Shown here piece by piece: positions 6,090 through 36,000 of a DNA stretch of 63,435 bases. Below the pieces are notes generated by a model. That model saw nothing but the letters and a program-made list of their open reading frames with translations, was not told where the DNA came from and made no database searches. The stretch's first letter is position 1. Each line of letters opens with the position of its first letter. The stretch is from a virus. Lineage: Duplodnaviria > Caudoviricetes. The DNA lies in the IMG/VR virus record IMGVR_UViG_3300033146_005951, positions 1 through 63,435 of that record; one strand, written 5' to 3'. The position numbers and the translations under genes are program-made.

Positions 6090-6382
6090 GTGATTTAAAA
6101 TGTGCAATTTTTGTTAAAGAAGAGTTAATATCTGATTTTAAAAATCTGCTTCTACCTGTTGAAGCTACTTTATTTGTTGACGGATTAAATTTATCTGAAC
6201 GAATGCAATGTCGTAGAGCGGCGAATGATCTTAATGTGGTCAATTTATTAGAGGAGCATGGGATTGTTTTAGTTATACAACAAGGATCTGTTCGTATTAG
6301 AGTTGCTGGTAATGAATCAATAGAACAGTATATTGAAGAGTTTCATAAAAACAAAACAGAAGTAAGCTTGGAGACATTTTAA
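6086..6382 (+). CDS. Hypothetical protein
   Basis: RBS ggag; start and stop overlap the neighbouring genes. Confidence 0.7.
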   Translation: MSDLKCAIFVKEELISDFKNLLLPVEATLFVDGLNLSERMQCRRAANDLNVVNLLEEHGIVLVIQQGSVRIRVAGNESIEQYIEEFHKNKTEVSLETF

Positions 6383-13933: not shown

Positions 13934-15013
13934 ATGAAAACGTTATTTTTGCGGAAAAAGATGTCCCTTTCCTCACCTGTTAAGTTTGATGCTCTTCTTC
14001 ATATCTCTAAAAAGCAAGAGGAGCCTGATCCTGGTGGTGAAGTCAAGCGAATTGTTGAAGGTAATGCAATAGTTGCCAAAAATATTGATGAGCAGTTTGA
14101 TGTGATTGATGTTGGTGCTCTTGGAAATGCAGTTGGGTATTTAAAAAAATACAAAACTGTTTTATTCAATCATGATCCTAATCGCCCAGTTGGTAAAATA
14201 CTTGATGCCGAAGTACGTGAAGATAAGATTTGGGTTCAAGTACAAATCAGCAAAGCTGAAGATGATTTGTGGGGGAAAATTATTGAAGATATTGTTAATA
14301 GTTTTTCTTTGAGTGGTGAGATTGATGATTTTGAGTTTAAATTTGATAAAAAATTGAATACTCAAGTTCGTATAATTAAAGCATTTCGGGTTCATGAAAT
14401 TTCTTTGGTATCAGTACCTGCAAATCCGGAAGCTAAGACTTTAAGTGCATACCTTACAAAGTCTTTGGATAAAGCAGGATATGACAGGGAGTCCTATGTA
14501 GAGGACGAGGAAAAACATAAAAAGTTTTTAAAAGAACTTGAATTTATTAACATTGCAATGGAGGTAACAAAAGCTATGAATTGGAAAGAAAAACTACAGC
14601 AGGCGATAAAGTCTATTGGGGAGCTTAGTTCTAAGATAGAAGATACGTCTATCCAGGATTCTTTGAAGAATATACAGAAGTTACTGACTGATGTACTGAC
14701 TGATGTATCTAAGGATTCTGACCCAAATGACGATAAGTCTTTGATTGAATTGAAAAATCTGATTAGTGAACTTGAGAAAAAATTTGCTGATTCAAACCAA
14801 CTTTCTCAGTCGTCAGTAGCTAAGGTGGATGATCTCGAAAAGAAAATCAGTGATGTTGATTCGGCTGTAGTCGGGTTGACTGAAATCATTAAAGAGCTCA
14901 TTGATTCTTCTGATGATGCTAATCCGACGGCTGAAGAAATCGAACTGGAGAAAGCCAAGAAGATTCTTCAGGATGCTGGCATAAACCCTAATTTGATTGG
15001 GGCTAGTTCTTAA
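13934..15013 (+). CDS. HK97-family prohead protease fused to a coiled-coil scaffold
   Basis: VLFNHD..PVGK, SFSLSG, HEISLVSVPANPEA; helical acidic C-terminal half. Confidence 0.9.
   Translation: MKTLFLRKKMSLSSPVKFDALLHISKKQEEPDPGGEVKRIVEGNAIVAKNIDEQFDVIDVGALGNAVGYLKKYKTVLFNHDPNRPVGKILDAEVREDKIWVQVQISKAEDDLWGKIIEDIVNSFSLSGEIDDFEFKFDKKLNTQVRIIKAFRVHEISLVSVPANPEAKTLSAYLTKSLDKAGYDRESYVEDEEKHKKFLKELEFINIAMEVTKAMNWKEKLQQAIKSIGELSSKIEDTSIQDSLKNIQKLLTDVLTDVSKDSDPNDDKSLIELKNLISELEKKFADSNQLSQSSVAKVDDLEKKISDVDSAVVGLTEIIKELIDSSDDANPTAEEIELEKAKKILQDAGINPNLIGASS
14576..15013 (+). CDS. Putative nested in-frame scaffold protein (MNWKEKLQQ...)
   Basis: GGAGGT at 14560-14565, 10 nt before the in-frame ATG at 14576. 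Confidence 0.55.
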   Translation: MNWKEKLQQAIKSIGELSSKIEDTSIQDSLKNIQKLLTDVLTDVSKDSDPNDDKSLIELKNLISELEKKFADSNQLSQSSVAKVDDLEKKISDVDSAVVGLTEIIKELIDSSDDANPTAEEIELEKAKKILQDAGINPNLIGASS

Positions 15014-15059: not shown

Positions 15060-16418
15060 ATGAAGAGTTTAGACCTCGCTAAAAAGTTAATCCATGATGC
15101 TAAGGCGCTGAAAAAAAGTCGTCAAAATACAGCACAGATTAACGAATTAGTACAGAAAGCCGTTAAAGAACAGGTAGCGGCAATGACAAATAACCCTAAT
15201 TTGAGAAAAGGCGTTTTCAATACTTCTTTAGCAAATAGAACCCCTACCACTTCAGGAAACACTTCTTTAGATAAGACTTTACTTTCTAAAAGTACTCGTA
15301 CTGGTGATTTGAGAGAATTTCAGAAAGCCTGTGATGATGTTTATGTTGCAAGTATTGTTACTGGGTTGCATCCAACTGAATTGGCTTCCTTTGAGGTATT
15401 AAAGGGCATGAAGGTTTACAAGGATGTTTATGATACCGTTGATTTTATGGATACTTCGTGGTGGCCAAACACTTTATCGCGTGATATGATTGAGCAAGTA
15501 GAAGCTGAGTTGAAAGTTGCTGCATTGCACCGTACAATTCAGATGCCTACGAATCCCTATAAGATACCCAGTAAAACTGGCCGAACAACTACATATCTTG
15601 TAGCTGAGTCTACTGATGAAGCAGGTACAAAACCTCCAACTTCAAAAGGCCCAGCTCCTGCAGATGGTGTTTTGTTTGATGCTAAAAAACTAATGGCTTA
15701 TTCAGTCATTTCTGAGGAATCAACTGAAGATCTTGTTATTCCTATAATTGGAATGATTAAAGAAGATATTGCTAAATCAATGGCTGAAGCTATTGAGGAA
15801 GCAACAGTTAATGGCCAGACTGTTGCAGATACAATTGATACTCAACTTGGTCTTGCTGCAAATGATGCTCGTCGTTCTTGGAATGGTCATCGAGTACATG
15901 CATTTGGTGGTGGTTGGACACAAGATCTTGCTGCTTGGTCTGCTACTGCAGCAACTGATTTACTTCGGAAGATGCGTGCGATTATGGGTCGCTATGGTGT
16001 TAATCCCGCCAAACTTGCTTGGATTGTATCTATTAACGGGTATAATCAAATGCTGAAGAATGAGGATGTGAGAACTATTGATAAATACGGTCCAAACGCT
16101 ACTTTGGTTACTGGAGAGATGGCTCGATTTGATAATATTCCTATTATCATCTCTGAGTTTATACCAGAGAACCTTAATGCAAGTGGAGCCTATACGTCAA
16201 ATACTGATAACGATTATACAACTATCGAATTGGTTTATGCTGATGGATTTGCCCATGGTGAAAGGTCTAAGTTTACTATTAAACAAGGCGAAGAAATCAA
16301 AACGGACCAAAAGTTTATCGTATCACGCGCCCGCAGAGATTTTAAACCTCTGTATATGGGACCAACATATGCAGATAGTATTATATGTGTTGGATATGGC
16401 CTGCCGAACGACGTATAA
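15060..16418 (+). CDS. Major capsid protein (HK97 fold)
   Basis: PNTLSRDMIEQV, IQMPTNPYKIP, AKKLMAYSVISEE..ED, EEATVNG, IPIIISEFIP; follows the protease. Confidence 0.9.
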   Translation: MKSLDLAKKLIHDAKALKKSRQNTAQINELVQKAVKEQVAAMTNNPNLRKGVFNTSLANRTPTTSGNTSLDKTLLSKSTRTGDLREFQKACDDVYVASIVTGLHPTELASFEVLKGMKVYKDVYDTVDFMDTSWWPNTLSRDMIEQVEAELKVAALHRTIQMPTNPYKIPSKTGRTTTYLVAESTDEAGTKPPTSKGPAPADGVLFDAKKLMAYSVISEESTEDLVIPIIGMIKEDIAKSMAEAIEEATVNGQTVADTIDTQLGLAANDARRSWNGHRVHAFGGGWTQDLAAWSATAATDLLRKMRAIMGRYGVNPAKLAWIVSINGYNQMLKNEDVRTIDKYGPNATLVTGEMARFDNIPIIISEFIPENLNASGAYTSNTDNDYTTIELVYADGFAHGERSKFTIKQGEEIKTDQKFIVSRARRDFKPLYMGPTYADSIICVGYGLPNDV

Positions 16419-16501: not shown

Positions 16502-17125
16502 ATGATTGGTAGTGTGCAAGGATATTCAACTTATATTGGGCAACCTGTTGTAGACCCTGAGATGATTCCTCGGTTAGAAAATGCTATTGTTAATGCTCAA
16601 GCTTTTATTGAAAATTATATTGGGTATCCTTTAGAAATACACGAAAACTCTAGTATTTTAGATGGTACTGGAAATCGTTATATTTTTATCCCAGATTTTC
16701 CAATTGTAGAGATATCCTCAATTAAGTATTACGATGAAGCCGGGGATGAATGGGTGGATTATGTTGTTGAAAACCCAGAAATTCGTTATAGGGTAGATAA
16801 TTCAATTGGACAAATAAAAATTATAAACAGCACATTTTTTTCAGGATTTCAAAATATTCAAGTAAATCATACTTCTGGATATGATTTTACTGTTACAGCA
16901 ATGTTGGATTTTAAAGCAAAAAGTATTTTTCTCGCGTTATATGAAATTGCTACTTTGTTTTATGATAACTCTGGACTTCTTTCTTTTAAGAGCACAGAAG
17001 CAGGTATTACAAAATCAAGGTTTAATTTTACAGCGGGTTCTGGAGATTCTCAAATTATGGCTATGCTATCACCTGAACTTACATTGACTCTTCATTCATT
17101 TGCTAAGAGGGGTGTAAGTAGGTAA
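16502..17125 (+). CDS. Head-tail adaptor (gp6/gp15-like)
   Basis: AQAFIENYIG, LDGTG..IFIPDFPIVEISSI, NIQVNHTSGY; follows the capsid gene. Confidence 0.75.
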   Translation: MIGSVQGYSTYIGQPVVDPEMIPRLENAIVNAQAFIENYIGYPLEIHENSSILDGTGNRYIFIPDFPIVEISSIKYYDEAGDEWVDYVVENPEIRYRVDNSIGQIKIINSTFFSGFQNIQVNHTSGYDFTVTAMLDFKAKSIFLALYEIATLFYDNSGLLSFKSTEAGITKSRFNFTAGSGDSQIMAMLSPELTLTLHSFAKRGVSR

Positions 17126-18208: not shown

Positions 18209-18619
18209 ATGCATATTGATAAGGTTCAAAAAGGAATACAAAGTTTTATTTTTGGATGTGATGAAGATGATATTTTAGATGGAGGAGTACAACCAGCATT
18301 TGATCCAGATTCTGTACCTACAACTATTCCATTAATGACTTTTAGTTTTATTCCTTATCCTTATAGTGGAATTTTTGATGCTTTTTTAATGGAGTGGATT
18401 TTTTGGTTTAATAATCCACATATTGCTGAAATATCAGATTTGATTGATAATATAGAAGTAAATTCAACTAAGTGGTTAGATATTAATTATGGAAGTAGCG
18501 TAATTGGTAGGATGCAAGTTAATTTTTTAAAATCACCTTCAACTGGTGGAATGTATAATTTAAAATTTATAACTTTATATATAAAAATGAGAACGATTTT
18601 TTATGGAGATGCCTGTTAA
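18209..18619 (+). CDS. Putative tail terminator
   Basis: Size and synteny (between gp10-like and tube genes); 'PTTIPLMTFS' motif. Confidence 0.45.
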   Translation: MHIDKVQKGIQSFIFGCDEDDILDGGVQPAFDPDSVPTTIPLMTFSFIPYPYSGIFDAFLMEWIFWFNNPHIAEISDLIDNIEVNSTKWLDINYGSSVIGRMQVNFLKSPSTGGMYNLKFITLYIKMRTIFYGDAC

Positions 18620-18896
18620 GGTGCATAAAGAACTTGGAGTTCAGATTATGACGAAAACAAATACAAAAGGAAAGCATTGGAAAGATCATCCTTGGAAGTG
18701 TGTTAATTGTGGTTTCATGCTTGGAGTACTTTCACAAGATCTTACAGAGCTTAGAGTAAAATGGCGGGATTTATTTATTACAGTTGGTGAAGCTAGATAC
18801 GTAAAAATTATCTGTCGAAGGTGTAGTAAGGAAAATATATTGAGTCAAGATATTAATAAAGATACGACAAAAATAGAGCGCCCTTCGAGTGCCTGA
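18603..18896 (+). CDS. Com-like zinc-ribbon protein
   Basis: WKCVNCGFMLG...VKIICRRCSKEN; the true start may be ATG 18648. Confidence 0.6.
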   Translation: MEMPVKVHKELGVQIMTKTNTKGKHWKDHPWKCVNCGFMLGVLSQDLTELRVKWRDLFITVGEARYVKIICRRCSKENILSQDINKDTTKIERPSSA

Positions 18897-18968
18897 ATAC
18901 AGTGCACATATTGCACATAAATTATTAATTGATCTTAACAGATCATAAATTTTATAGGAGGTAATGCA

Positions 18969-21900
18969 ATGCCTTATAATTTACCTAAGAGGAGGATTTT
19001 TAACTACTCCAATTCACTTGGGCTATCAACCAGTAATGGTTGACGGAATCTCCTTGAATTCGAGGGAAGCCTTATCAGGTGGTGCTGAAGGTAATCTCGA
19101 GCTAAGCTCTATATATTAATATAGAGAAAGTGTAACGGCCATTCCGAAAGGAAGTACTTTACAAGTGTAAAGGAAGCGGGGAGCTCCTTATTAAAAACAA
19201 TAATATAGTGTAAGGCCTATGTTTAATAAGGATGGTGAAATGGTCTAATCTTTATGGAAACATAAAGTTGCAGGTAATGCTGCGAGTAAGGCTTAACGAA
19301 TCTTACTGAATATAAATGAAGTACAGTGCACAAAACTTCTCTATTGGACCTTGTGTTGTCTATATGGGGAATTTTTGCACATCCGGTTTGGCCACGTGTG
19401 AACCTCAGGTAGATGTCGGAGGTGTTAACTCTGGCGCTACACTGACTACTACGCGTGAGAAAACGGAGATCTTTCAAGGGTTCTAGGGAGCCGTCCTTAT
19501 AGGTAACTATGGGGATTATTACTCTGTGAATTGCTGGAATATCCTAAAGCCAAATAAACTACAAAGTAACCTTGAAATAGAGGTAAGCTTGAATGTTGCG
19601 AAAGCAGAAAAAATTATTTGGATTGCATAAGGTTAAATATCCTAAGTGTTAAGTTATAATGGACAATCAGCAGCTAAAAAATTAGTTCATCGACTATTCC
19701 GTAAGGAAGTACTCCGTAAGTACGGAGGAAGCGCAGAGCATCTATTAATTCAATAGATGAAGATATAGTCACAACTTCTTCAGAAATGAAGAGATGCTTA
19801 TTTATTAAGCAACGTAAAAGTAACGATTTTACGTAAGATTAGCAAGTCCCGAATGGTATAGACATGGTACAAGTTTAATACTTGTACTAGTATGGATGTA
19901 AATGAATGTTTGAGTTTGTAATCAATACTAATTCCTAAAGAGGAAATATAATGAGTTTAGATATAGATAAACTATTAGTAGATGTTTTAGATAAAGGTAG
20001 CACTTTTCATAATTACAGTGATAAGGTATCCAATCCAAAATTTAAGGCTGATATGGATTTTGATTTAAAACGCAGAAGAAATGAAGTGGCAAAGTTTTTA
20101 AAAGTTGTTGATTTGGAAGCTTCAAAATCAAATCAAACAGCTAGAGTTTTGCAAAAAGAAGGCTTTCAAGGTAGGATTCCAGAAAATTTAATTGAACTGG
20201 ATTTTGACTTTTCTTCAGTTAAATCTTCTGAGTTTATTCAAATCCTTGATGGGTTGGTATTTAGTGATGGGTATATATCAAAGAGTAATTTTAAATTAGG
20301 TTCTACTTTTCTTTGGTATGTTAATGCTGTACGAGGTTTTTTTGAGCATTTTAATTGGATTACTCGTTGGTATGCGTATCCAGATAAATCTGGCTGGACT
20401 GATAAGTTATCTTTTAATGTAGATACTTATCCTACACGAGACAATCCTTTTTCAATGAAAGCATATCGTAAGTGGTGGTATCCAAATGGAAAAAAAGTTA
20501 TTCCTAAAGATCTGGAAATTTCACCTCTAATGATGAATGCTGCGTGGTGTGGTGATGGTGGCTACATGAGTGATAATGCAGGTATGCTTTATACTAATAG
20601 TTTTACTGTTGAAGACGTAGATTCTTTTATATTACGTTTAAATAAGATCGTAGGTTGCAAAGCCAAAAGAAGATTCAAAAAACAAACTCAACCAGTAATA
20701 TTTTTCTCATCAGATGAATTCCAAAAGCTTTTATTGTTTATGGGTTCTAAACCTATAATTCCAGGTTTTGAGAAAAAGTTTATGATGCATCCAGATAATT
20801 TTCGGCGAGTGCCAGCAATGGTACGGGAAAAATCTCTTCTAATCAATGACGAAAGCTCAAAAGTCAAGGTTATTCAGCCTTGTGAGGGTAACGTACAGCA
20901 AGTTTTGCAAGATGTAAAGGACTTTGCTTCTTTAATTAATAGTGATGGTACTTTTATGATTCACAGGAAAACTAATCAAAGCAATTGTTTTGAGAGGCCT
21001 CAATACTTACCTGTATTAAAGATATCATCTACTAATAGAGAATTAGTTACTGCAGTAGCACGTAACTTACGATTATCTAGAATTAAAGAAACAACTCCTA
21101 AATATGGTATTGCACATAGATTTAGACTAACTACTACAGGCAGACCAGTCATTCAGTTCATTAAAAAACTCCTACCTTATTTAAATGAGGAGAAGAAAAT
21201 TGTGGCTGTTATATTATTAGCTTTGCCTATGGGTAGAGGTTATCATGAATTAAAACATTCAATCTATGAACAATTCTTAGAAACATCCAAGGCATTACAG
21301 CTGCAACGACTGAACGAAGAGACCCCACTGCAATTAAAAGTAGTGGGAGGTGCACCAGTCTAGTTGTTTAAAAAGACTTGTAATGAGTCACTTTATTGTA
21401 AAATAAAGTTTTATATGCAATCGAAACCCTAGTTGATCAATTTGCGACGCAGGAAACGGCTGTACTCAAGTTTGAGTCTATTGAGTGGAACGTTTCCAAT
21501 CTCGTTAAAGCTTTGAGTGCAGGTATTGTTACTCAAGGCACAGATGTAATTGATAAAGCATTAACTCAAGTTACTGCAAATGGTGATGCTGCAGAAACAG
21601 ACTTTACTTTTGCTATGACACCTACTACTGGTATGGCAGTATTGCCTGAATCAGTAATTGTGACAGATGGTACTGAGACATTTACTGATAATGGCGATGG
21701 TACTCTTACAGGTGATGCTACTGGTACTGGTACAGTAAATTATGCAACTGGTGCAGTTAGTGTATCTTTTAATGCTGCCCCTTCAGTAGGAGTAGGTAAC
21801 GTTACATGTGATGCAGATGAAGGAGAGCTTCTTTGTACTGTATCCGGAACGCCAACTTATAACATGCTGTTTTTAAAGTGGCCCTATGTAGCACCTAGTT

Positions 21901-22403
21901 CAGTAACTATTTATACTGGGGGGGGCTTAAGTTGTTCTGATGATGGCGCAGGTGGCTTGACTGGTGATATTGTAGCTGCAACTCCGCCTGACCCGGATAA
22001 TTCTATTGAATATGAAACTGGGCGTGTAGATGTAACTTGGAATGCTGCTCTTACTGCTGGCGAAGTAATTGTTGCTGCGTATGACGGAACAAAAACTGAA
22101 ACATTGAGTTTTGGCGGACAAATTTCTTTTATCGATGTTGCACTTAAACTAGTTCATGATACTCCAAAAGGTAGTACTATTACTATTAAGATTTGGAAGG
22201 CTCAGGGATCTGGTGCACTTGATATGACTTTTGGTGATGATGCCCATACATTCCCGATGGAGTTTAATGCAATGGTTCCGTTTGATCCATGCACTAAGCA
22301 AGTACTCGATTGGGCTGGTGATCCTCTTATCGAAGGTAAACAATTATTTGAGATAACAATTGAGAAGGCTGCCGGAACATGTACTGGTGATTGCGCCACA
22401 TAA
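18969..22403 (+). CDS. Major tail tube protein, spliced: join(18969..18986,19319..19481,19847..19852,21424..22403), 388 aa
   Basis: RBS ggagg at 18957-61. Exons total 1167 nt and read MPYNLP|KYSAQNFSIGPCVVYMG..GATLTTTREKTEIFQG|FP|KTLVDQFATQETAVLKFESIEWNVSNLVKALSAG.., joining ORF 21513..22403. The exon 3/intron 3 boundary is least certain. Confidence 0.8.
18987..19318 (+). ncRNA. Group I intron 1 (ORF-less, IA-like, 332 nt)
   Basis: P1 CCU|AAG:CUUGGG with U-G at the splice site; P10 AAGU:ACUU; P gaattcgaggga; Q aatctcgagc; P7 ggcca:tggtc with P7.1/P7.2 hairpins; P8 tccttattaaa:tttaataagga; terminal G 19318. Confidence 0.85.
19482..19846 (+). ncRNA. Group I intron 2 (ORF-less, IA-like, 365 nt)
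   Basis: P1 GGU|UC:GAGCC with U-G; P10 UCCC:GGGA; P gaattgctgga; Q aatcagcagc; R gttcatcgacta; S aagatatagtc; P3 ctctg:cagag; terminal G 19846. Confidence 0.9.
19853..21423 (+). mobile_element. Group I intron 3 (IB-like, about 1571 nt) carrying a homing endonuclease ORF
   Basis: Candidate IGS ttttcgg 20799-805; P2 gtgcca-gcaa-tggtac; P3 tctcttc:gaagaga; P7 gactg:cagtc; P8 cccactgc:gtagtggg; terminal G 21423. The 5' boundary is inferred from reading frame. Confidence 0.75.
19951..21363 (+). CDS. Intron-encoded LAGLIDADG homing endonuclease with three LAGLIDADG-like motifs
   Basis: ILDGLVFSDGYI, WWYPNGKKVIP, NAAWCGDGG, LYTNSFT (LAGLIDADG_2-like), plus DFASLINSDGTF. Confidence 0.85.
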   Translation: MSLDIDKLLVDVLDKGSTFHNYSDKVSNPKFKADMDFDLKRRRNEVAKFLKVVDLEASKSNQTARVLQKEGFQGRIPENLIELDFDFSSVKSSEFIQILDGLVFSDGYISKSNFKLGSTFLWYVNAVRGFFEHFNWITRWYAYPDKSGWTDKLSFNVDTYPTRDNPFSMKAYRKWWYPNGKKVIPKDLEISPLMMNAAWCGDGGYMSDNAGMLYTNSFTVEDVDSFILRLNKIVGCKAKRRFKKQTQPVIFFSSDEFQKLLLFMGSKPIIPGFEKKFMMHPDNFRRVPAMVREKSLLINDESSKVKVIQPCEGNVQQVLQDVKDFASLINSDGTFMIHRKTNQSNCFERPQYLPVLKISSTNRELVTAVARNLRLSRIKETTPKYGIAHRFRLTTTGRPVIQFIKKLLPYLNEEKKIVAVILLALPMGRGYHELKHSIYEQFLETSKALQLQRLNEETPLQLKVVGGAPV

Positions 22404-22438
22404 TTTTTCAGATTAAGGCACATTTTAATCTGCTTCAT

Positions 22439-22475
22439 AGTTGAGCTAAATATAATTTAGCTCAACTTATTATTT
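22439..22475 (+). terminator. 13-bp-stem hairpin after the tail tube gene (terminator or mRNA-stabilising hairpin)
   Basis: agttgagctaaat-ata-atttagctcaact followed by tattattt. Confidence 0.55.
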
Positions 22476-22497
22476 AGTTATGAGGAGGTATTTGTAA

Positions 22498-22704
22498 ATG
22501 GCATTATTAGAAAATGACGCTTATGATGGCGCAAAAGGCAGTATTGGCCATACATCACCCACAAACGGTTCAAGCCCTAATTTAAGTGTTGCAGTTAAGT
22601 CAACAAAAAGCAATTTTAAAGTTGGATCTGAGCGTGCTTCTGGTACTGGTTTTGGAAATATCAAATCAGTCAATCCGAGTGGGGGTTCGAAAGGGCCAAG
22701 ATAA
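22498..22704 (+). CDS. Small Gly/Ser-rich hypothetical protein
   Basis: Strong RBS gaggaggt. Confidence 0.75.
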   Translation: MALLENDAYDGAKGSIGHTSPTNGSSPNLSVAVKSTKSNFKVGSERASGTGFGNIKSVNPSGGSKGPR

Positions 22705-24091: not shown

Positions 24092-27000
24092 ATGGAAAAT
24101 ACAATAATTCCTTTAAGTTTTGATGTAAGTGCTCTTCAAGGCCAACTTGATGATATTACTAAAATAATGAATAAGACTTTTGCTTCGTTTGGTAGCAAAG
24201 GACAATTCAAAAGTCTTTCTACTGCCATGAATTCATTTAAAGGTAGTTTTGGTACTATCAATAAATCATTAAAAAGTATTGATTCTAATTTAGGTTTACT
24301 TGTCATTAATATAAATAAGATGTCGAGTAGTTTACAAGAAACAGGTAAAGAAATGAGTACCTTACGACAAGGTACTAAAGATAGTATTGTTACTACAGAA
24401 AAACTTGTTGGTGGTTTTAGTAAAGTTCAATCTGAAGTTAAAGAAACTCAATCATTATTAAAGAAACCTATGAGTTTAAATATTGATTTAGGTAAGACAG
24501 ATCTTGTAGGTCCTCTTGAAAAGCAATTAAGTACAGCACAACAAAAAATTAACCAAGCTTATAAATTTGAAACCCCTATTGGAAAGAAAGCTATATCTTT
24601 TGTTGATGAGACTAAAGTCAAAAATGATGTCAAAGTTTTTGAGAATGCTTATTCTGAAATTAAAAATTCGTCAGATGCTATGATAACTTATGTTCGTGGG
24701 ACTACTCGAGATATTCTTAAGCATCCTATGAATTCACTTGAGCAGTTTCAAAATTTATGGACTAGAACTATTTATAATCTACAGTCGCATAAGACAGGGC
24801 GAGAAGCAATTCCTTTATTCACTCTTACAGGTTCTGAGCTTGGCCCCATATCTGCTGCAATAGAAAAATTAGCTGAATTTCGAAAAGTAAGGCGAGGTTT
24901 AGATGTTGAATCCTTAAAGAGTTTTGAAAGTAGGCCTTTTGAAGAATTAGCTAAATCTTTAAGTAAATCTGGGTTTGCATATGACGAATTAATTGAAGCA
25001 GCTAGGGCTTTTAATGTATTGGAAGTAACTGGAGAAAAGCATATAGATGCTAATATTAAACAAACCAAAGAATATAAAGTTTTAGAAAAAGCTATTAAAT
25101 TATATTCAGAGGCTGTGGCTGTGGCTGATAGACAAATGGAAAAATCAGGAACAGTATCTGATGGGCAGGTAACAAAAGTAAAAAAATTAAAGCTTGCAAT
25201 GGATGAAGCAAGAAAGTCTGTAAGCTTAAAAGGAGAAATCGTATCAGTTAATGCTTTAGCTGGGACATTAGAAAATTTAGGTGATGTTGCCGGCACAAAA
25301 GTTACAGCTGCATTTCATAAGTTAGCTAGTTCATCTAAAAAGATTGGTAAGGAAACATGGGCTAAAGTTTTTGAGGCTAAAGATATTGGGGGATTTCAAA
25401 AAGCATTAGTTGTTTTAGAATCAAAATTAGGTCAAGTTGGTAAATCTAATCCACAAATTGAAGCGTTATATAAAAACTTTAGTAATATAAAACAAATTGC
25501 TGAAACTCATTTTGCTGCAAAGATGTCTGCTGAGTTTGAGGAAGGTGCAAGTAAATCTGAGAAAAAAATTGGTGAGTTATATACTAAGATAACTAAGTTA
25601 CAAAGTCAAGTTGCAAAAGGGGAGCTTCCTCAAAGTGCTTTAGTTGGTCCATTCAAAGCACTTTCAAAAGAAGTTGAATCTCTAATCAAACGCTCTCAAG
25701 TATTAAATGTTTCTTTAGATCAAATAGAGCAATCTAAGGGTCCTTCGGCAATGCGGTATGAGAAAGGACCGAAATCAAGTAGTACAGAATCTCGTGACCT
25801 TGCAACAACATATCAGGAAGGTGTTAGTGAAAAACAAATTTCTTCTTTAAGCACTCTTCAGTCTGGATTAAGAGGAGTTGCTGATCAATTAATATATGCA
25901 AATACTGAACTTAAGGTTTCTGAGGCTGCGTGGGTAAGTTGGGGAGAAGCTAGAAAAAAGATTGTTTTTGATCTTCGTAAAATTACAAGCGAATTTGAAG
26001 TACCGGTTGAAGATGTTTCTCGTACAGATATATCTAAGAAACATAGACAGTATGCAGATTATCAAAAACAAATTGATAGTTTAGTTAAAAAAAGAAAATT
26101 GCTTGGTATGGTTGATAAATCAAGCTATTCAGAATCTCTTTCACAAATGAAAAAAGTATTATCTGGATTACCTCAATTAAATGATTTACAAAAAAGAGGT
26201 AACCAAATTGTACGTGAAAGAAAAGCTTTACTTGATGCTACTGCAGGTAAAGAAAAGACCCCAGAACAAATAGCTCATCTTGAAAAATTAAAGAAGCAAT
26301 ATAAGGAAGTTAAAACTGCTGAAACCGAAGTTGCGAACGTTACTTTATTAATTGCAAATGAAATGGATGTTCTTGCAAGTAAGTCCGCTTTTAATCCAAC
26401 AGATATCGCACGTATCTCAGAGTTTGCTATTGAATTACAAAGAATAGATTCTCTTATTAAAACCATTAGCGGTAAGTCTTCATTGAGTATAAGCGCAGAT
26501 GTTGAAACCTTACAGAGAAGTTTAGGTACGATTAGTAAGGATGCTATTCCAATTAAGACAAAAATCACTATTGATCAGAAAGCAATAGATAAAGAGATTG
26601 CTACATTAGGCCAAAAATTTCATGCTGCAATGGCTAAAGAACCTAAAATTCGTACAGAGACAAGAACAAAAACTGCGTTACAAACTATCCGTTCAACTCA
26701 AAATGCAATTGGTAAGTTAGATAAACAATTGTTTGCAATGACGGATTCTGCAAATGTTGCTTTGCGTAATATCAGAATGGATAAAGCTTTAAATCCTAAA
26801 GATGCAGAGCAGTTAATGAAACCATTACAAAATTTAGTTTCTGAATTTTCTGGCTTACAAAAAGATATTTTGTTAATAGATGAGTCTTTAACTAAATTAG
26901 GTTCTAACCCAACTGAAGAACAAATGCAGAAGGCCTGGTCTCAGCTTGAGCCTGTCTTTTCTAATGCTTATGAGAAGATGAATTTATTTTCTGGGGTATA

Positions 27001-30000
27001 TGATAATCTTTCAAAAAAACAAGGTGGTGCGACTGCTGCAACTAATAATATGGTTTCATCACTAGAAAGGTTAATGCAAAAACCTACACGTGCAGCAAAG
27101 TCATTTGATATTTTAATTGATTCATTATTAAGAACTCAGGGTATAGCAGGAAAAACAGATTTAGCTAAACAGTTAAAATCCCCCGATAAAGCAATTCGTG
27201 AATATGCACAGAAAATTTCTGCGTCAATTGGAAAAGCAAGAACTGGCTTAGATACTATTGCTGGAGAAGCTCTTGGCCCTGAGGCAAATAAAAAAATTAA
27301 GCAGAATATAAAAAGAGCAGAAGAGAATTATGTGAAGCAGGTTGCTGATGCACAAAAGCGAGCCAGACGTAAATTAGACTCATTAATTAAGAAGGCAGAG
27401 GCTGGTCCTGGGTTAAAACGTAGTGGTGCTATTGATAGTGCAAAAGCGGCATTTGGTAAAGAAATTGGCGCATCTATTATTTCTGCAAAAAAAAGCTTAG
27501 AACAAGAGAAAGAAAGAATTCTTAATGTTCCTGTAAAATTAAAACCAGGTGTTGAGGCTGATCTTGTACTTAAAAAATGGAAAAGTACAATACAAGCTTT
27601 AGTTACTGATTTTGGTCAAGGAGGTAATTTAGCTGCTCAGAAATTTCAAGAAATGTATGCTTCAACAGCAGGCGGTTTTAAATTTGATCAGTCATTGTAT
27701 AATGTAGCATCTAAAACTAAAAGCTTATTGGGTCAAACTGGTTCGTTCTTTAAAACAATGGGCTCTCGTAGTGGTGATGTTCTGCCTTTAGAAGAATTCG
27801 ATCAATTAATTAAAAGACAAAAGCAGTTTCAAAAAGAAGGGGCACTTAGTACTGTAGCTCTTAATCCAATTATTGAGTTAGGTAGTGTTATATCAAATAC
27901 TGCTAATGTATTTGATAAGATGAAATTAGCAGTTAAAGCTTCTGCTTCTCCAGAGGTTATAGATAGTATTCAAAAAGAAATTGATCAATTCATACGTCTT
28001 CGTAAAACATCAAAAGATTCAACTGCACAATTATCTCAGCAAACTAAAGAAACCCGTGGCTTAGGTTTCACCATGGAAAAATTTGGTTATGCTATTGATC
28101 TCCTTATTCAATATTTAGAAAAAGCCATTAATAAATTTCAAGGTTTAGGTAAAACTGCGCACACTGCACTTAGTGGCATTGGGTCAAGTTTAAGAGGCCA
28201 AGCTGGTTTATTTAAATCAGGTTTAGCAGATATTGAAGGACCAATGTTTGATATTAAGCCTGAAGGATTTAAGTTAACCAAGCCTTTAGAGTCTATGTTT
28301 TCTGAGATATATAATTCTTCATTAACTAGTTTGCAAGATTTACGTAAGGTGACTGATAAAGGGTTATCTGCTTGGTCTGTAAGTTTTAAAGGAGGATTGT
28401 CGAAGACTGATAATGTAATAAAGCAAAATGGGTCTGCTTTAATTGGGGGTTTAAGTAAAATAAGAAAAAGTGTTCAAGCATCTACTGTTGTAAATTGGGG
28501 TAATATAATTGATCCTAAGGGGGCTGAATTATTAAGAAAATCAGCAGTGGGTATTGATTTACAATTAAAAGAACTGCAAACAAGTATCGCAAGGTTTAAA
28601 ACTGGTAAGATTTCAGAGGTATCTTCCTTTCCTACAGTTAAAGCTTTACAAACTCAATTAAAAACAGTATTATCTGTATCTGAAGAAGTTAAGCGTAAGC
28701 TTGCAGCAGGTAAATTAGGCATGGAACATTTTCCAGCAGTTGATAAATTACAACAATATGCCCTACAATTAACTGCTGCAATTGATATGATCGAAAAACC
28801 ATATAAATCTATGAAAGGATTAGCTGGTCAAGAAGAAAAAGTTAGCACAAAACAATTAGGCAAATCTTTTAGGTCAGGAATAATAGGTGCTCAAAAAGAA
28901 TTAGAGGCTGCTGTTAAACAGGTAAAGACTCCAATGAAGTCTGTTATGGTCAGGTTATTTGAAGACGTGCTTTCAATGACACCTACTGAGATTCCCCAGG
29001 CAGCAGGAATGATGAGGAGTTTAGCTGAACAGTTTCCAAGTCAAATGCAATCTGCTTTTAATGTAATGGGTAAGAAAAAATATGAAGTAGGTAAGTTCAT
29101 TGCAAAAATGTTTAGCATAGATCCAAGTGAATTTAAAACAGTTGAAGCAGCTATGGAAAAGAGGGGAGCTGAAATTCCTAAAATGCTTCTCAAGGCTATT
29201 TTTCTAACTGAAGGTCAGGCAAAGTTTGCAGCAGATGCAAAGAAGTTGGCTAATCAAGTAATTACTGCTCCCCTAAACAAAGCCCTTCGGTCAGCAGGAG
29301 AAGTCACTATGCCCAAATTCGAAACTTTTCGAATTGGTGATGAAATGATGAGAGCCGCAAAATTTGAAGGTGAAAAATTTACTCAAGTAAAGTCTCAATA
29401 CGGAACTTACATTTCAAGTTTAATTAATGATATAAGCAAACTTATGAAAGTTTCTCCATCAAAAACAATGAAACCAATATTGGAGAAAATTTTTAATGCA
29501 AGTGATGTTAATGATATTAATGCTTATGCAAATGGCATGAAAGGGGCTTTAAGCAATATAAAAGATTATCTTCAGAAAGCTGTATCTGGTAAATTGCCAA
29601 AAGGGCAATTAGCAGCTGGTTTAGGTTTGCAAGAAGAATTTAAAGTAGCAGGTTTAGATATAGATGAAAATGAACTATCTCAAATGTTTGAGCAAATGTA
29701 TAAGACGGCAGGTCAATCATTAAAAGATTTTGTTGCTCAAGAAAAAAGGTGGAGCTCAGATTCGATTAAAGATTTAATAATATTAATGGAGTACTGGGAA
29801 AATTTAGGTGGCATGGTTGATATGGTAACCAAAAAGATACCTAAAGTTTCTAATATGAAAAACATTTCTGAAACAATGTTTAAGGGCACAGAGAGCGGTT
29901 CAGTTGCAGCTGGCCGTGATATGGCTCGATTAATGGTTACAGCATTAACATCTACTTTATCTGAGGGAAGCGGAATAAAACAACCTTTAGCTGCAATGAT

Positions 30001-33000
30001 TGGCAAATCTCCTGAGGTCATATTTGAAATAATGCGAGGTACAAATCAAAAACTTAAAAATGAATTAAGAGATTTAGGTTTTAATTTACGTGGAAGTACT
30101 ACAGATTTAGTTAAAAGTATTTCTAAGTTGGGTGATGTAAAAGTAGGTACTGAATGGTTTGAACAATATAGATTGGCAAATGAGAGATTTAATATAGAAG
30201 GTGAAAAAACAGGCATAGTATTAAAAAAGATCCGTGATGGATTTAATACAATAACACCTTTAAGTTCTGAGGGGTTATCTGAACTTGCAACTCGTTCGCA
30301 AGATTTTCTTACTAGAGCAGGTATTGCATTTGAAAGCTTTGATACAAAGTTGTTTAAGCACTCTATTAACTTTAATGCATTTAGTGAAAAAGAAAAAGCT
30401 AATGTTGGAAAGTATACTAATATACTTTCTAAAGGTATGCGTACTATAGGACAATTCCTCCAAGAAGATCCTTTTTCAGGTAGCATAATGCGTTTAGTTA
30501 GAGAAGAAGATGTTCTTTGGGAGAAACTAATTGTTTCTGCTGATAAAGGAGGCAAGAAACTTAAAACAAGCATTCAATCTGAATTAGCTAGGGCACTTGA
30601 TACAACCAAACGTGAAGGAATTAATTTAAATAGATTATTCAAAGGCACTGGTAAAGTTCCTGAGCTCCAAGAAATTATTGGGCAGTTAATGGAGTTACGA
30701 AAAACCAAGCGTGCAGTTGATACTGAAATGATGGCACCTGGTGTTAGACCTTTTAGTAATCTTATTAAAGACGCTTCATTACTGCAAGGAACATTATTAA
30801 CTGCTTTTGGTAGTATATCTAAAGGATTGTCTCGTGTAGGTGAGACAGGCAAAGTAGATATTAAGATGGGCAATTCTATCAGAAATCTTGATACAGTTAC
30901 TCAACATTTAAATATACTTCAAGCAGAAATTGACGAAACAATTGCATATGCAAAAAAGACAGGTCAAACTTTACCTTTAGAGTTTCAATTAGTAACGCGC
31001 TCAGTTTCAGATATGGGTTCGAGCCTTAATAGTTCATATGAAGTTTTAAAAAAGTTACCTACTCACGCAAAGGTCTCTGAAAAAGATATGGAGAAACTTG
31101 CTGAGACAGTAAATAAATCTGCAAGCGCTTTGAAGAAATTTGATCAGATAGATCTTAAAGAATTTTCTTCTAGAGTAGGTACAGCAATGTCTATTGCTAT
31201 GAATAAGGTTAATGCTTTTAGTAAGCAAGCTCAAATAAGGCCTTCATTTCAGCTAGGTAAAACTGGTGTTGATCAAATACTTAAAGCTACTGGCAGTGAT
31301 TCTGATAAGATGATTCAGCAATGGAGAGAGTCTGCTGTAGCAGGTGGTGATACATGGAAACAGATGACAATGTTTCTAAAAGAATTAGAACCTGAAATGA
31401 AAGGAATTTTTGAACGTTTTGCAAGTAAGCCTAGATTATTATTAAAAGCTTTTGATAAAATGACTCCCCAGATGAGAATATTAATGTCTTTATATTTTAA
31501 TGAAATGGGTCATTCTACCGCACAAGGTTTTCAAAAGTGGATGCAGACATATGATAAATATTTTAGCGGTATGACAAAAACAAATAAAAGGCATCTTGAA
31601 ACCTTTTTAGGATATACCTCTCAAACTATGGCATCTTTTAAAGCCCCTGATGTAACTAAGTATTTTGCTCCTGAAACAGGATTAGAAGCAGATAAAACAA
31701 CAGAAGGGTTAAAGAGGCTTGGTAATGCTTTATCTAAACTTGGCATTAATATGAAAGAATTAAAAGATCTTTCTGGAGATACTTCGTGGTTGAAAAAGTG
31801 GGGAGAAGCTTTTGCTACACCTATAGATTGGGATTTTGGCCCAGGCAAAGGGAAGACAATTCAACTTACTGGTACGTTTAGTATGTTTGCTAAAGCAATT
31901 ACTCATGTAGGTGAGGGGTTAGATATATTAATGACTCAGTTGCGTAGAGTAGGAGAAGAAACTCAATCTGGTGCAATTCAAAAAGGAATCAAACAATTAG
32001 TTGCCCTCATTATGCAATTAGATGCTGAGTTTAGTAAAACTTCTAAATTTAAATTATCTATTGGTGCAGGATTAAGTACAAGCTTAAAACCTTTAAGAGA
32101 TGTAGGTTATGCAATAAATAGTTTCTTTGATGCAATGGAAAAAATCAAACTTGCTTCAGATTTTACTTTAACTCAAAAAGAAATTAGTTCATTTGGTAAT
32201 ATAGTTATAATAACAATGAATCAAGTTGCTGCTGCAATGAGTCCTGCTGTTAAAGCTTTAACTGGGTTTGCAAATACAACTGCTGTTAAAAGATTCTCTC
32301 AGTTTGCTCAAGGATTACGTGATTTAGTTGCTGCGACAAAAGACCTTTATCAATTTACAGCTGTATTTAGTGAGATAGACAAAGATTCTAAAAAAGGAGC
32401 TACTGCGTTAGGTCATTTTGAAAAAGTAATGAAATCAATGATGATCTTATTGAATAGCATTCCTGATATATCTAAAAAACTTAATTTTGGTGTAAGTAAA
32501 GATGCAGCAAATAATGCTAGAATGCTTGTTGAGGTATTAAAGCCACTGGCTCAATCTATGTTAATGATTGGTGAGGCTTTTAAAGGAAATGTTAATATCG
32601 AAAGCAATATGAAGAGATTTTCTTCAGCTTTAAAAGGAATGATTAATGTTATTAGAAGTGTTGATTTAGATCCAGTAACTAAAGATTTATTAAATGATAT
32701 ACGTAAACTAACTCAAATATTTAGTTCTAAAGCTTTAGTTGCAACACCTGATGAGGCAGAAAAAAGGCTTCAAGTCTTGGCTCAAGTAATTGAGCAAGGA
32801 TCAAATAAAGTTGCACAAAAAACTAAGCAGGGTATTGAGAAGATGAATCGAGCTTCAAAGACCCCAAAGACTGATTTTTTAACTGATTTAGGTATTACTC
32901 CAGGCAAGGCTACAGGTGGTGGGGGTATTGTATCTGATTTAATGGATATTCAAACTAGTTTTTCAGAGCCAGTGCCAAATTTTGATGCCAGTGAACAAGC

Positions 33001-36000
33001 AATGGGGCATTTAGCTAGTGCTGGAAAAGAAGTAGGAAAAGTACTTCAAGTTATTAACAATGCTGTAATTAAGTTAGGTTCAGAATTTAAAGAAATTCTT
33101 CCTGGAGAAGAAAAGTTTATTACAGAATTGACTCAATTAGCTGCATTGAATCCTGCTGCAGCTATTGATAAATTAAATATTAAATTGAATTCGTTAGGTA
33201 AAAATTTAGCGGGTGATAATTTAAAGAAATCACAAGATGCAATACAAGGGTTTATAATTGAATTATTAAATGGTGCTGCAGGTCTTAAATCAATGGGTGC
33301 TGCAGGTACTGAACTGCAGAAGATCCATGATAACTTAAATAAAGATACAGTTAGCACTAAAGAATTAACTATTGCATTGACAAAAGTTAAAGGAGTTTTA
33401 AAGAGTGTAGAGGTTGAATCTGCAAAACTTGATTTACAAAATCGATTATTAAAAACAAGAGGGGAGGCTAAAGGTGTCCATACAGAAATAAAAAGTTTAC
33501 TTATGTCTATGAAAGCATTAGGTCCCGAGTTTAGAAAATCTCTTTCTACTGGTGATGCTAGGCGTGAATTCCTTTCTTATTCAAATGAGCTAGGTTCAAA
33601 ATTAGAGACTGCAATGGGTCCAATGAGGGCATTTTCTGGATTCAAAGGAGTTAGCGAAGAAATTAAAAAAATGACTTCGAGTATGGCCGTATTAAAAAGC
33701 CAATCTCAAGGCATGGTTACTTTAGCAGATCGGTTTACAGGTAAATTAAGAATTGCAGGAGATCAGTTTTTAAATCTAGTTGCATATCAAACTAGGTGGT
33801 ATGTTTCACAACAAATCTTTTTTATGGGGTTTGGTCAGATACAAAAAATACTTTCTAATTTTGGTGCTTTGGATATTCAAGTAAGAAGAGTTCTTCGTGT
33901 TCTTCGTGATTCTAATAATGCAGTGTTGGGTATTGATTCTTCAATTCGGGCTTTATCTGGAGCAGGTGTTAAGTGGGCTTCTGATTGGGCTCAGAATATG
34001 GAAGTAATGTTTAAGGCCCAGACAAGATCTACGTTTTATAGTTTATTTAAACAACTTGGTACAACCTCTGAAGAAATTGGTGAGTCCATGTATCAGTTGG
34101 GTTCTGCAGGTTTGCAAGCAAATGAAGTAATGTCTGCCATTGAACCAACTCTTCGAATGATAATTGCTACTGAAGGTGAAGTTAAAGATACTACTCGATT
34201 GATAGCAGGTGTTTTTAATTTATATGGAAATTCAATTGAAGGAGCAAGAACAAATACTGAAAAGTTTGTATATATCACTGATGTATTAACTGCAACATTT
34301 AGAGATCATATGGTTACGATTGGAGAACTCATTACTGGTATAAGTTATACAATCGCTACTGCTAAACTTTCTGGTATGCAATTTGAAGAAGTAACTGCGG
34401 CACTTGCAGTTTTAAATGATAATATGTTAAAGGGTTCAAAGGCGGGCCGTGCATTTAATAGGATGCTTTTAAATTCAACTAAAAGATTAGATGAAACAAA
34501 AGATATTTTACAAGCAATTGGAAATCAGGCAAATATAGGAGTTGATTTAACAAAGATTTTTGAGGGGTTGGAAGTCAGTGGAGCTAGACCATTTGATTAT
34601 ATTATTCAAGCTGGCATAGCAATGCAAGAACAATTAAAGACTGCTAATCTTACAGTAGAGAATTTAACTAGGACTTTTAAGTCTATGGGTGTAGTTGGTG
34701 CTCGTGCTTTTGCCATCCTTTTATTAAAAGCTGGTGATTATGAAAAGACATTATTTCAGTTAAAATATGCTGCGTTTAGTGCTGGCGAAGATATGTCTGA
34801 ATTATTAATTGGTGGTTTTGATAGATCAATTCATCGAATTGAAGGTTTCACTCGAGCAGGTTATGCGCGTGTAATGGGAATAGCTCGTGGCGGCGTTACC
34901 GTATTAGCTTCAATGGTTCAGCAAGTAGAAAGTGGTATTAAGAGAATTTCTGAAATGCCTTTTATTCCAGATATTCCAGATGTTAAAAGTTATATTTCAT
35001 TTTTTGGTGTAGTTGCAACTGGTGCTGCAATATTTGCTGGAATTAAGAAAAAGCCTTTGCCTGGATTAGATGCTTTGAGGTTTGATAAGTGGGCTAAAGG
35101 AATTAATAAGTTTACTCTTAATATAGATCAAAACAGAACTGCATTAAAGTTACTCAATGTTGAATTAAGAAAGACTGGATTAAATGCAATTAATTTAGGT
35201 CAAGCATATGAAACTGCAGCAAATAAAATGACTGCAATGAGTAAAATGGGATCTACAATGTCTACGTTTAAAGGACTAACTGGATTAACGTCGTCTTTTA
35301 AACCTCAACAACAACTTATTATATCTGGTTTAAAAGATATTGAAAGAGCTTATACAAAAGTAACTTCAGGCAAATGGAGTATGGGAGATCTGACTGAATT
35401 TAATAGCCAGATGAAATCAATTGCTGCATTCGAACCGACTTTCTTAGCCCGTGAGAAAGAATTTACTATTAAAACTAATTTAACTCGAACCATTAGTGAG
35501 TTTCAAAGAGGATCAATTTCTGCTGATCAATTTAGAGATAGACTTAATGCTGTTCATAAAGAAACTATTAAAGCCAGTGGAATGTCAAATTTAACTACTA
35601 AATTAGATATTTTCGAAAAAGAATTAGCAAGTGGTTCTATGACTATGAGCCAATATACTACTAAATTACGTCAGTTGGGTATTGAAGCAAATAAATTAGG
35701 TAGTATAAAAACTTTTGGATTAGGTGCTGTATCTACAAAAGGATTTGCTGAATCATTTAAAGGAATGAGTAAGTTAAATAAATTATATTCTTCGAACATG
35801 GATCAAATGAGCAAGATAGGCATTAAGTCTATGGATCAAGTTTTTAATTTAGTTAGAAATCCTGCAGCTTGGAGTGAATTTGCATCTAATATGACTAAGA
35901 GTTATAGTAAATTTGATTCTCAAACTCAAAAAGTTTCAAATCAGTTTGGTAGGTTAGTCGATCAAATATCAACACCAATTCGTAAAGTATCTATAGGAAT

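Follow-up and report, generated by a model that had tools for sequence, protein, structure and literature searches.

A tail-tube gene of an environmental phage interrupted by two group I introns and by a third element that carries a homing-endonuclease gene

A tail-tube gene split by self-splicing introns is known from Staphylococcus phage Twort and its relatives. According to excerpts of two papers, orf142 of Twort contains three IA2 group I introns, with an exon of 23 nt between introns 2 and 3, and shows exon skipping (PMC11878797, PMC10136302); one of these excerpts adds that orf142 later proved to be a tail-tube gene (PMC11878797). For organelles, excerpts state that exons of less than about 4 codons between self-splicing introns ‘occur regularly in mitochondrial genes’ (PMC10352661) and report an exon of 1 bp for placozoan cox1 (PMC5436844). 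Precedents exist for three group I introns in one tube gene and, commonly in mitochondria, for mini-exons between self-splicing introns. Here we characterize a gene at positions 18969-22403 of a 63,435-bp virus record (IMGVR_UViG_3300033146_005951), which encodes a major tail-tube protein and is interrupted by three intervening sequences. We refer to the whole 63,435-bp stretch as the window; its completeness is about 56% by the virus collection's own estimate.

With Twort, and with phage SapYZU04 (OP432864), the window seems to share a tail-tube gene with three tandem self-splicing elements and very short internal exons. It differs from Twort in its siphovirus-like gene order with a 6418-aa open reading frame (ORF), in its origin from environmental contigs and in a tube-protein family that is unrelated in sequence. 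The short exons of the window measure 18 and 6 nt compared with 23 nt in Twort, and our literature search found no phage exon shorter than the latter. The third element of the window, unlike that of Twort, is 1.6 kb long, carries a LAGLIDADG gene, has no covariance match and lacks a U at its 5' splice site. Fungal and other mitochondrial introns of groups I and II resemble the window in their mini-exons, and LAGLIDADG ORFs are typical there, but these systems are organellar while the window belongs to a phage. What the locus adds is a new host lineage with another tube-protein family, exons of only 18 and 6 nt, four insertion sites within a single gene among close relatives, and a third element that departs from both the covariance model and the U·G rule for 5' splice sites.

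Taken as a whole, the explanation that we find best, and in which we place moderate confidence, is a tube gene that carries two group I introns and a divergent third one, all of them selfish. Three mobile intervening sequences would have invaded the gene at highly conserved peptide motifs, and their removal from the late mRNA would yield a protein of 388 aa.

Joining positions 18969-18986, 19319-19481, 19847-19852 and 21424-22403 of the + strand, on which all parts of the locus lie, gives 1167 nt that are free of internal stops and comprise 388 codons plus the stop codon. A ribosome-binding site (RBS) with the sequence AGGAGG was read at 18957-18962, 6 nt before the ATG at 18969, and the upstream sequence with the RBS region is the same in the uninterrupted alleles L049, L050, L001 and L051. 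Exon 1 (18969-18986, 18 nt) encodes MPYNLP, which is identical to residues 1-6 of the homologues P0003-P0006 and P0010, and its DNA is colinear with L049 and L050. Exon 2 (19319-19481, 163 nt) is colinear with the homologues and corresponds to positions 3-49 of the profile phrog_2175. Exon 3 (19847-19852) consists of 6 nt only, which complete the codon of an F, encode a P and start the codon of a K. It is needed to restore the motif FQGFPKTL, which is invariant in close homologues, and the uninterrupted DNA alleles are colinear with it. Exon 4 (21424-22403, 980 nt including the stop codon) covers 100% of residues 63-388 of the homologues at 86-90% identity.

When exon 4 alone was used as query, 63 proteins were found at E<=1e-3, among them P0003-P0006, which are all exactly 388 aa long. 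The joined product agrees with P0003, an uninterrupted metagenomic homologue of 388 aa, at 347 of 388 residues and, ungapped, at 99 of the first 100. Of the 388 positions, 340 are identical in P0004, 321 in P0005, 317 in P0006, 236 in P0010 and 204 in P0013. The N-termini of the homologues read MPYNLP/KYSAQN and, further on, FQGF/P/KTLVDQ (slashes mark our junctions), with zero gaps at all three junctions. The DNA of four uninterrupted alleles, L049 and L050 with about 80% identity at the amino-acid level and L001 and L051 with 57%, runs through all three sites without a break. These alignments show that the gene is interrupted and where exactly its junctions lie. A first-pass annotation of this DNA had proposed that removing three stretches would leave one stop-free 388-aa frame behind a good RBS and ATG, with micro-exons of 18 and 6 nt, and had asked whether intron-less homologues are colinear with the joined exons; they are, at all three junctions, and the frame and both micro-exons hold.

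The gene caller's product for this region is P0001, a 296-aa protein from the ORF 21513-22403 that starts with TTG and lacks an RBS. By comparison with the homologues, P0001 is only the tail part of the 388-aa gene, as had been suspected from the missing RBS, and the expectation that standard gene calling would overlook the full gene proved right. The corrected annotation implies that the most abundant tail protein of the virion has 388 aa and is not a 296-aa fragment.

The identity of the protein was examined by fold and by profile. In our alignment A2, proteins of 189-190 aa match the N-terminal ~100 and the C-terminal ~90 residues of the 388-aa forms, which in addition carry an insert of ~200 aa made of two immunoglobulin-like (Ig-like) modules. 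Searching with a profile built from the short forms gave 189 cluster representatives at E<=1e-3. The AlphaFold2 (AF2) model of the 189-aa homologue P0019, which is not the joined protein of the window, reached a predicted local distance difference test score (pLDDT) of 88.8 with an alignment of 96 sequences. A Foldseek comparison of this model with the PDB gave 25 matches at E<=0.001, the best of which are tail-tube proteins, with phage Mystique (9n71) first at 7.7e-9, followed by YSD1, Chi, Bxb1, lambda V and SPP1. It is thus the model of a homologous short relative that has the tail-tube fold; for the 388-aa homologue P0003, AF2 gave a poor model with a pLDDT of 71 overall and of 30-65 in the tube core. 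The family profile also matches the PDB sequence 9n71_B, named ‘Tail tube’, at 1.8e-6, and the gene lies between the head-tail connector genes and the putative chaperone/tape-measure genes, where a tail-tube gene is expected. On these models and profiles, the interrupted gene is a major tail-tube gene, predicted to encode a tube core of ~190 aa with a ~200-aa insert of two Ig-like domains, in agreement with the first-pass annotation. A tblastn search with exon 4 against 50,697 phage records returned zero matches. The Ig-like modules of the insert (window 21690-22090, in exon 4; motif DGTETFTDNGDGTLTGD) recur in a 472-aa ORF at 45901-47319 (phrog_6128). Such a module is also present in many unrelated phage proteins, where the precomputed domains are head-decoration PF02924 or Gp23-type capsid PF07068.

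Intron 1 (18987-19318, 332 nt) and intron 2 (19482-19846, 365 nt) hold no ORF of note. The covariance model RF00028, which has a gathering score of 50 bits, matched at 18977-19267 (67.9 bits) and 19461-19793 (77.3 bits), in both cases aligned over its full length (1-253); an Rfam scan of the whole window placed RF00028 nowhere else. The pairings at the splice sites could be read from the sequence. In intron 1, P1 contains the pair U18986·G19020, P10 forms between 19016-19019 and 19319-19322, and the last base is G19318. In intron 2, P1 joins 19476-19481 with 19493-19498 and includes U19481·G19493, P10 joins 19486-19489 with 19847-19850, the initial four bases of exon 3, and the intron ends in G19846. 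The U·G pairs, P10 helices and terminal Gs noticed in the first pass are therefore all present. Folding of intron 1 gave z = -3.66, with 0 of 100 shuffles as stable. We assign both introns to group I and predict from their sequence that they are self-splicing. They would be Twort-like, ORF-less ribozymes that splice in two steps initiated by guanosine.

Among the 50,697 phage records, the closest DNA relatives of introns 1 and 2 are from Staphylococcus phages (113 of 166 matching records). The introns align to those 3' of the tail-sheath gene of SapYZU04 with scores of 93 and 127, which 0 of 200 shuffles reached, and share about 76% DNA identity with them over core segments. In SapYZU04, the tail-sheath gene is followed directly by a 122-aa first exon that matches phrog_985, a virion protein of 141 positions, and three RF00028 matches (79-95 bits) lie 3' of this exon; Twort orf142 is described with this same arrangement. 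In the record itself (OP432864, our L105), the 1.4 kb at 1494-2938, 3' of the ‘capsid protein’ orf92, hold these three matches and are unannotated; judged by its sequence, orf92 looks like the first exon of a tail-tube gene, not like a capsid protein. A fourth stretch with an R element, at about 1501-1700 of SapYZU04, aligns to intron 2 of the window.

We then compared Logan DNA contigs of four runs with window positions 18700-22600 at 80% likeness. One contig of a relative termed X1 joins 18986 directly to 19319, such that intron 1 is exactly absent. This contig also has 693 letters of other sequence at 19405/19409, in VDVG, a conserved motif of exon 2, and continues into intron 2; by alignment, this is a fourth insertion site in the tube gene. 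A second X1 contig (29,301 nt, depth 181) spans 19572-22559 with 236 differences and 14 gaps. From these alignments X1, which is 92% identical and has an intact endonuclease ORF, possesses every part from intron 2 through exon 4, with the micro-exon and the third element between them. In a further relative, X3, a contig joins 19481 to 19847 and goes on into the third element; intron 2 is probably absent there. Among relatives that are 80-92% identical, introns have thus been gained or lost, with some relatives lacking one, two or all of them. All insertion sites fall into motifs that are conserved among the close homologues of alignment A2, namely MPYNLP, VDVG and FQGFPKTL.

The third intervening sequence comprises 1571 nt at 19853-21423 (equally 19854-21424), as delimited by colinearity with the uninterrupted alleles. 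Its last base is G21423, as expected for an intron of group I, and its 5' exon ends in A. In the frame of the exons a stop follows 9 codons into the element, and the endonuclease ORF ends in another frame than that of exon 4. The earliest start codon in the latter frame is the TTG at 21513, which has no RBS, and starting there drops 29 conserved residues. Window, X1 and X3 each have the 60-nt tail 3' of the endonuclease stop in a phase of their own with respect to exon 4 (X1, +1 after 21418; X3, -1 at 21409), so that this tail is not coding. Since neither readthrough nor a coding tail is available, removal at the RNA level is the only route by which every variant would yield the conserved protein.

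FPKT is restored in the window and in X1 alike only by a junction after A19852 (or A19853). All U/G alternatives near the junctions were enumerated by hand, and every one shifted the frame, ran into a stop or yielded a peptide that X1 does not keep. Joining U19481 to G21417 gives GSIETL and joining it to G21408 gives GFLYAIETL, neither of which is conserved in X1, while U19481 with G21423 gives a stop; U19854 or U19857 as 5' site has no in-frame G partner. An intein is also rejected, the element being out of frame with the host protein and running into the stop 9 codons in.

These data bear on the possibility that the third element is not spliced at all, in which case the tube gene would either be dead or, like some split genes of T4-like phages, be expressed as two polypeptides from parts that a free-standing endonuclease gene separates. 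In line with this, no ribozyme is confirmed by the covariance model, and in X1 a TTG just 3' of the endonuclease stop is in frame with exon 4, is preceded 13 nt upstream by GGAGG and was chosen by the gene caller as start of P0002 (346 aa). However, neither in the window nor in X3 does the frame of this TTG agree with that of exon 4, owing to the indels at 21418 and 21409, and because the phase of the tail differs in this way between the three we reject split-gene translation. The late, RBS-less start at 21513, the single junction that keeps FPKT in both phages, and the presence of the third element together with an intact micro-exon in an abundant relative (depth 181) speak against it as well. 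We therefore regard an unspliced third element as very improbable.

The third element carries an ORF of 470 aa with its own RBS (19951-21363). The product matches the Pfam family LAGLIDADG_2 (PF03161) at 1e-11 with 45.5 bits (cut-off 25) over residues 97-260 and phrog_11023 at 2.9e-17, and a second region, 325-416, matches phrog_5046. By sequence this is an intact LAGLIDADG homing-endonuclease gene, the activity of which is predicted. The copy in X1 is intact and identical at 447 of 470 residues; the differences comprise 1 in the last 80 residues and 22 in the first 390, numbers that are too small to use. Relatives of the endonuclease were not found in viral and genome contigs, and a collection of 5.8 billion proteins yielded only 2 besides itself, one of which (P0066, 41% identity) shares a 27,544-nt contig with a tube-gene fragment. 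The DNA-polymerase intron of Bacillus phage phiNIT1 encodes an endonuclease of the same PHROG family, phrog_11023, but with 28.5% identity over 34% of the protein, and the host gene in the window is structural. The excerpt of PMC11878797 includes a table with one group I intron carrying a LAGLIDADG gene in a Nitunavirus polymerase gene. The sequence around the third insertion site is a pseudo-palindrome, symmetric at 8 of 11 positions, the centre of which lies 2 nt from the insertion.

Several features of the third element point to a group I ribozyme. Its last 264 nt, a structured 3' domain at 21160-21423, fold with z = -3.65 and 0 of 200 shuffles as stable, which matches the level of intron 1; a control of the same length from the middle of the endonuclease ORF gave z = -0.28 with 77 of 200 shuffles as stable. 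The domain contains R-like (21303-21312) and S-like (21356-21364) elements that are nearly identical to those of bona fide SapYZU04 introns and can form a P7 of 5 bp (21308-21312/21356-21360, the latter strand being P7'). Between the two elements follow, in canonical order and spacing, 3 nt, a 7-nt stretch at 21316-21322 (P3'), a P8 hairpin of 8 bp at 21324-21347 and 8 nt; distal hairpins complete the domain. The 7-nt stretch perfectly complements 20833-20839, which would give a P3 of 7 bp.

The P3 partner lies in the linker between the two endonuclease domains. In a hand model that was built post hoc, this linker (20824-20850) provides a guide sequence (20824-20829), the 5' strand of P3 (20833-20839), J3/4 and the 5' strand of P4 (20845-20850). 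The guide, three bases 5' of the P3 strand, can form 6 bp without mismatch with the six exon bases that precede the splice-site A, and 3' of the P3 strand one finds UAAUC and then the P4-like strand. No other stretch of the whole element pairs with the 5' splice-site segment as well as 20824-20850 does (-13.1 kcal/mol, rank 1 among 149 windows). Positions 20828-20860 align best to P3-J3/4-P4-J4/5-P5 of one SapYZU04 intron, with 18 of 500 shuffles reaching the score, and the R region of the third element aligns best, in colinear order, to the R region of that very intron (37 of 500 shuffles). A strict descriptor of guide, P3, P7 and P8, with thresholds chosen post hoc, is matched by the real sequence and by 2 of 3000 dinucleotide shuffles.

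In the hand model, the core helices would be interleaved with the coding sequence of the endonuclease: domain 1 would be located in the loop of P1, the conserved linker VREKSLLINDES would overlie the guide, P3 and P4, the conserved C-terminal SKALQLQRLNEE would overlie the R element, P7 and P3', and the stop of the ORF would be the UAG of the S-like element. Candidates for P6 and for the 3' strand of P4 are 20869-20874 and 21148-21153. The distal tail at 21364-21411, which lies 3' of the S-like element used in the model, resembles P8'-J8/7-P7'-P9 of intron 1 (19219-19269), a likeness reached by 1 of 300 shuffles; to judge from its sequence, the third element may be a composite that keeps the 3' end of an older intron. 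The distal hairpin 21390-21409 has lost its GNRA loop in X1, as deduced from P0002. Three other pairing schemes were discarded. A nearer guide candidate (21148-21154) gave only -6.7 kcal/mol, reached by 1051 of 2000 shuffles, a perfect helix as long as the longest one that joins 5' leader and 3' domain (9 bp) also occurred in 300 of 2000 shuffles, and a first hand model (P4 21200-21209/21297-21306, P7' 21385-21389) was dropped on comparison with the Staphylococcus phage introns.

A number of results weigh against this group I assignment. Five permissive scans (19780-21520, 21120-21440, 19830-20240, 20812-21432 and 21293-21432, the last starting just 5' of the R-like element and allowing a 5'-truncated alignment) gave 0 RF00028 alignments at E<=10, whereas the 3' half of intron 2 alone, taken as control, scored 45.3 bits as a truncated match; the 1.4-kb ORF within the element limits the span of the model. 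The 5' exon ends in A, and the hand model places this A opposite another A. An excerpt of a database paper calls the U·G pair of the 5' splice site ‘completely conserved’ and reports its use as a filter (PMC11835236); the third element does not have this pair. A lenient helix descriptor was also matched by 151 of 400 shuffles, and global alignments of the 3' domain to known introns were not significant (z 0.3-3.0, with one control at 2.5). In the hand model P6 was not found and the 3' strand of P4 is tentative, and the helices derive from a single sequence. Finally, 0 RNA runs are among the 8 listed for the stretch, and we infer the splicing of all three elements.

Some of these results would also suit a real intron that is not of group I and is removed by a protein-dependent or an undescribed RNA route. 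The 0 matches in 5 of 5 scans against the 45-bit control, the A in place of U and the insignificance of the lenient descriptor are what it would predict, and minimum-free-energy folds of the joined ends pair both splice sites. A candidate for such a route is a long imperfect helix of 19850-19862 with the last 14 nt of the intron (21410-21423), but changes in X1 at 19856 and 19857 on its 5' strand are uncompensated. An archaeal bulge-helix-bulge intron, in which a 4-bp helix is flanked by two 3-nt bulges that are cut after their second base, can be discarded: by hand check, neither splice register allows the central 4-bp helix. A group II intron is likewise disfavoured, there being neither a GUGYG start nor a domain-V-like hairpin on inspection by hand. 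The R-, S- and P3-P4-like stretches, the terminal G and the group I-type endonuclease speak against such a route, which we consider unlikely.

On balance we favour, if with no great margin of certainty, a divergent group I intron as the third element, its class being unproven. Of the three group I cores claimed in the first pass, those of introns 1 and 2 (67.9 and 77.3 bits) stand; the third was matched in 0 of 5 scans, follows a 5' A, and has P1, P3, P4, P7 and P8 in a post hoc hand model only. According to the proposal, the third element would have its core helices interleaved with its own endonuclease coding sequence and would cut after A.

The 6-nt exon would play a particular role in splicing. 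Four of its bases would be the P10 partner of intron 2, and in the hand model the guide of the third element pairs with five of the six exon-3 bases plus the last U of exon 2. The guide helix thus reaches 6 bp only once intron 2 is gone, which suggests, as far as the model goes, that intron 2 splices before the third element. In its strongest form the proposal makes the third element an active intron of the group I type, one that cleaves after A and breaks the U·G rule, with helices threaded through a two-domain LAGLIDADG ORF and with a 6-nt exon that is the 3' exon guide partner of one intron and the 5' exon guide partner of the following one and imposes an obligatory splicing order; this form we put forward as tentative and somewhat doubtful. 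Joining the 5' site of intron 2 to the 3' site of the third element (19481/21424) would, as read from the sequence, create a UAA stop, so that Twort-style exon skipping would be non-productive here.

It had been suggested that three splicing steps act as a timing or dosage checkpoint on tube production. Nothing direct speaks for such an adaptive role; exon skipping is documented for the Twort tube gene in the excerpts (PMC10136302, PMC11878797), and the 19481/21424 product would end at the UAA. Yet relatives that are 80-90% identical manage without one, two or all of the introns, and the relative without intron 1 has another insertion elsewhere. The insertion sites are the most conserved motifs, as homing predicts, and one element has an intact homing endonuclease. 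The pattern of presence and absence, the sites in conserved motifs and the intact endonuclease are the mark of selfish homing DNA, and a checkpoint has very little probability. The elements would be tolerated because they are spliced out and would have no regulatory function.

The locus has some wider implications. A three-intron tube gene of the Twort type recurs in an unrelated environmental phage with related introns, and tube genes therefore appear to be a repeated landing site for such elements. The presence of at least 4 insertion sites in one gene among close relatives makes the family a natural system in which to study how introns are gained and lost. Accepted rules on how group I introns recognize splice sites are challenged, in a testable way, by the 6-nt exon and by the A at the 5' splice site of the third element: should this element self-splice, U·G, supposedly invariant, would not be obligatory, and should it not, another route for removing a 1.6-kb insert from phage mRNA must exist.

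The surrounding genes follow the order terminase, portal, protease, capsid, adaptor, interrupted gene, two small ORFs and the 6418-aa ORF, which by its sequence is the siphovirus-like order of a long-tailed phage. The large terminase ORF lies at 3504-5762 (+), the portal at 6382-7659, the protease at 13934-15013, the major capsid at 15060-16418 and the head-tail adaptor at 16502-17125. The 6418-aa ORF (24092-43348, +), which two small ORFs separate from the tube gene, would by position alone be the tape-measure gene; if so, a tail of the order of a micrometre is implied. Directly 3' of the tube-gene stop, a consensus scan found a terminator-like hairpin of 13 pairs followed by a T-rich tail (22439-22467, +); the number of such sites, 2 in 4 kb, equals the shuffle mean of 2.0, which makes it weak evidence for a terminator. 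In the 752-aa terminase ORF the PHROG terminase profiles span residues 346-736 only and leave the N-terminal ~345 residues uncovered. Just 5' of the tube gene, a 97-aa ORF (18603-18896, +) contains two CxxC pairs (CVNCG and CRRCS), a sequence pattern that suggests a zinc ribbon.

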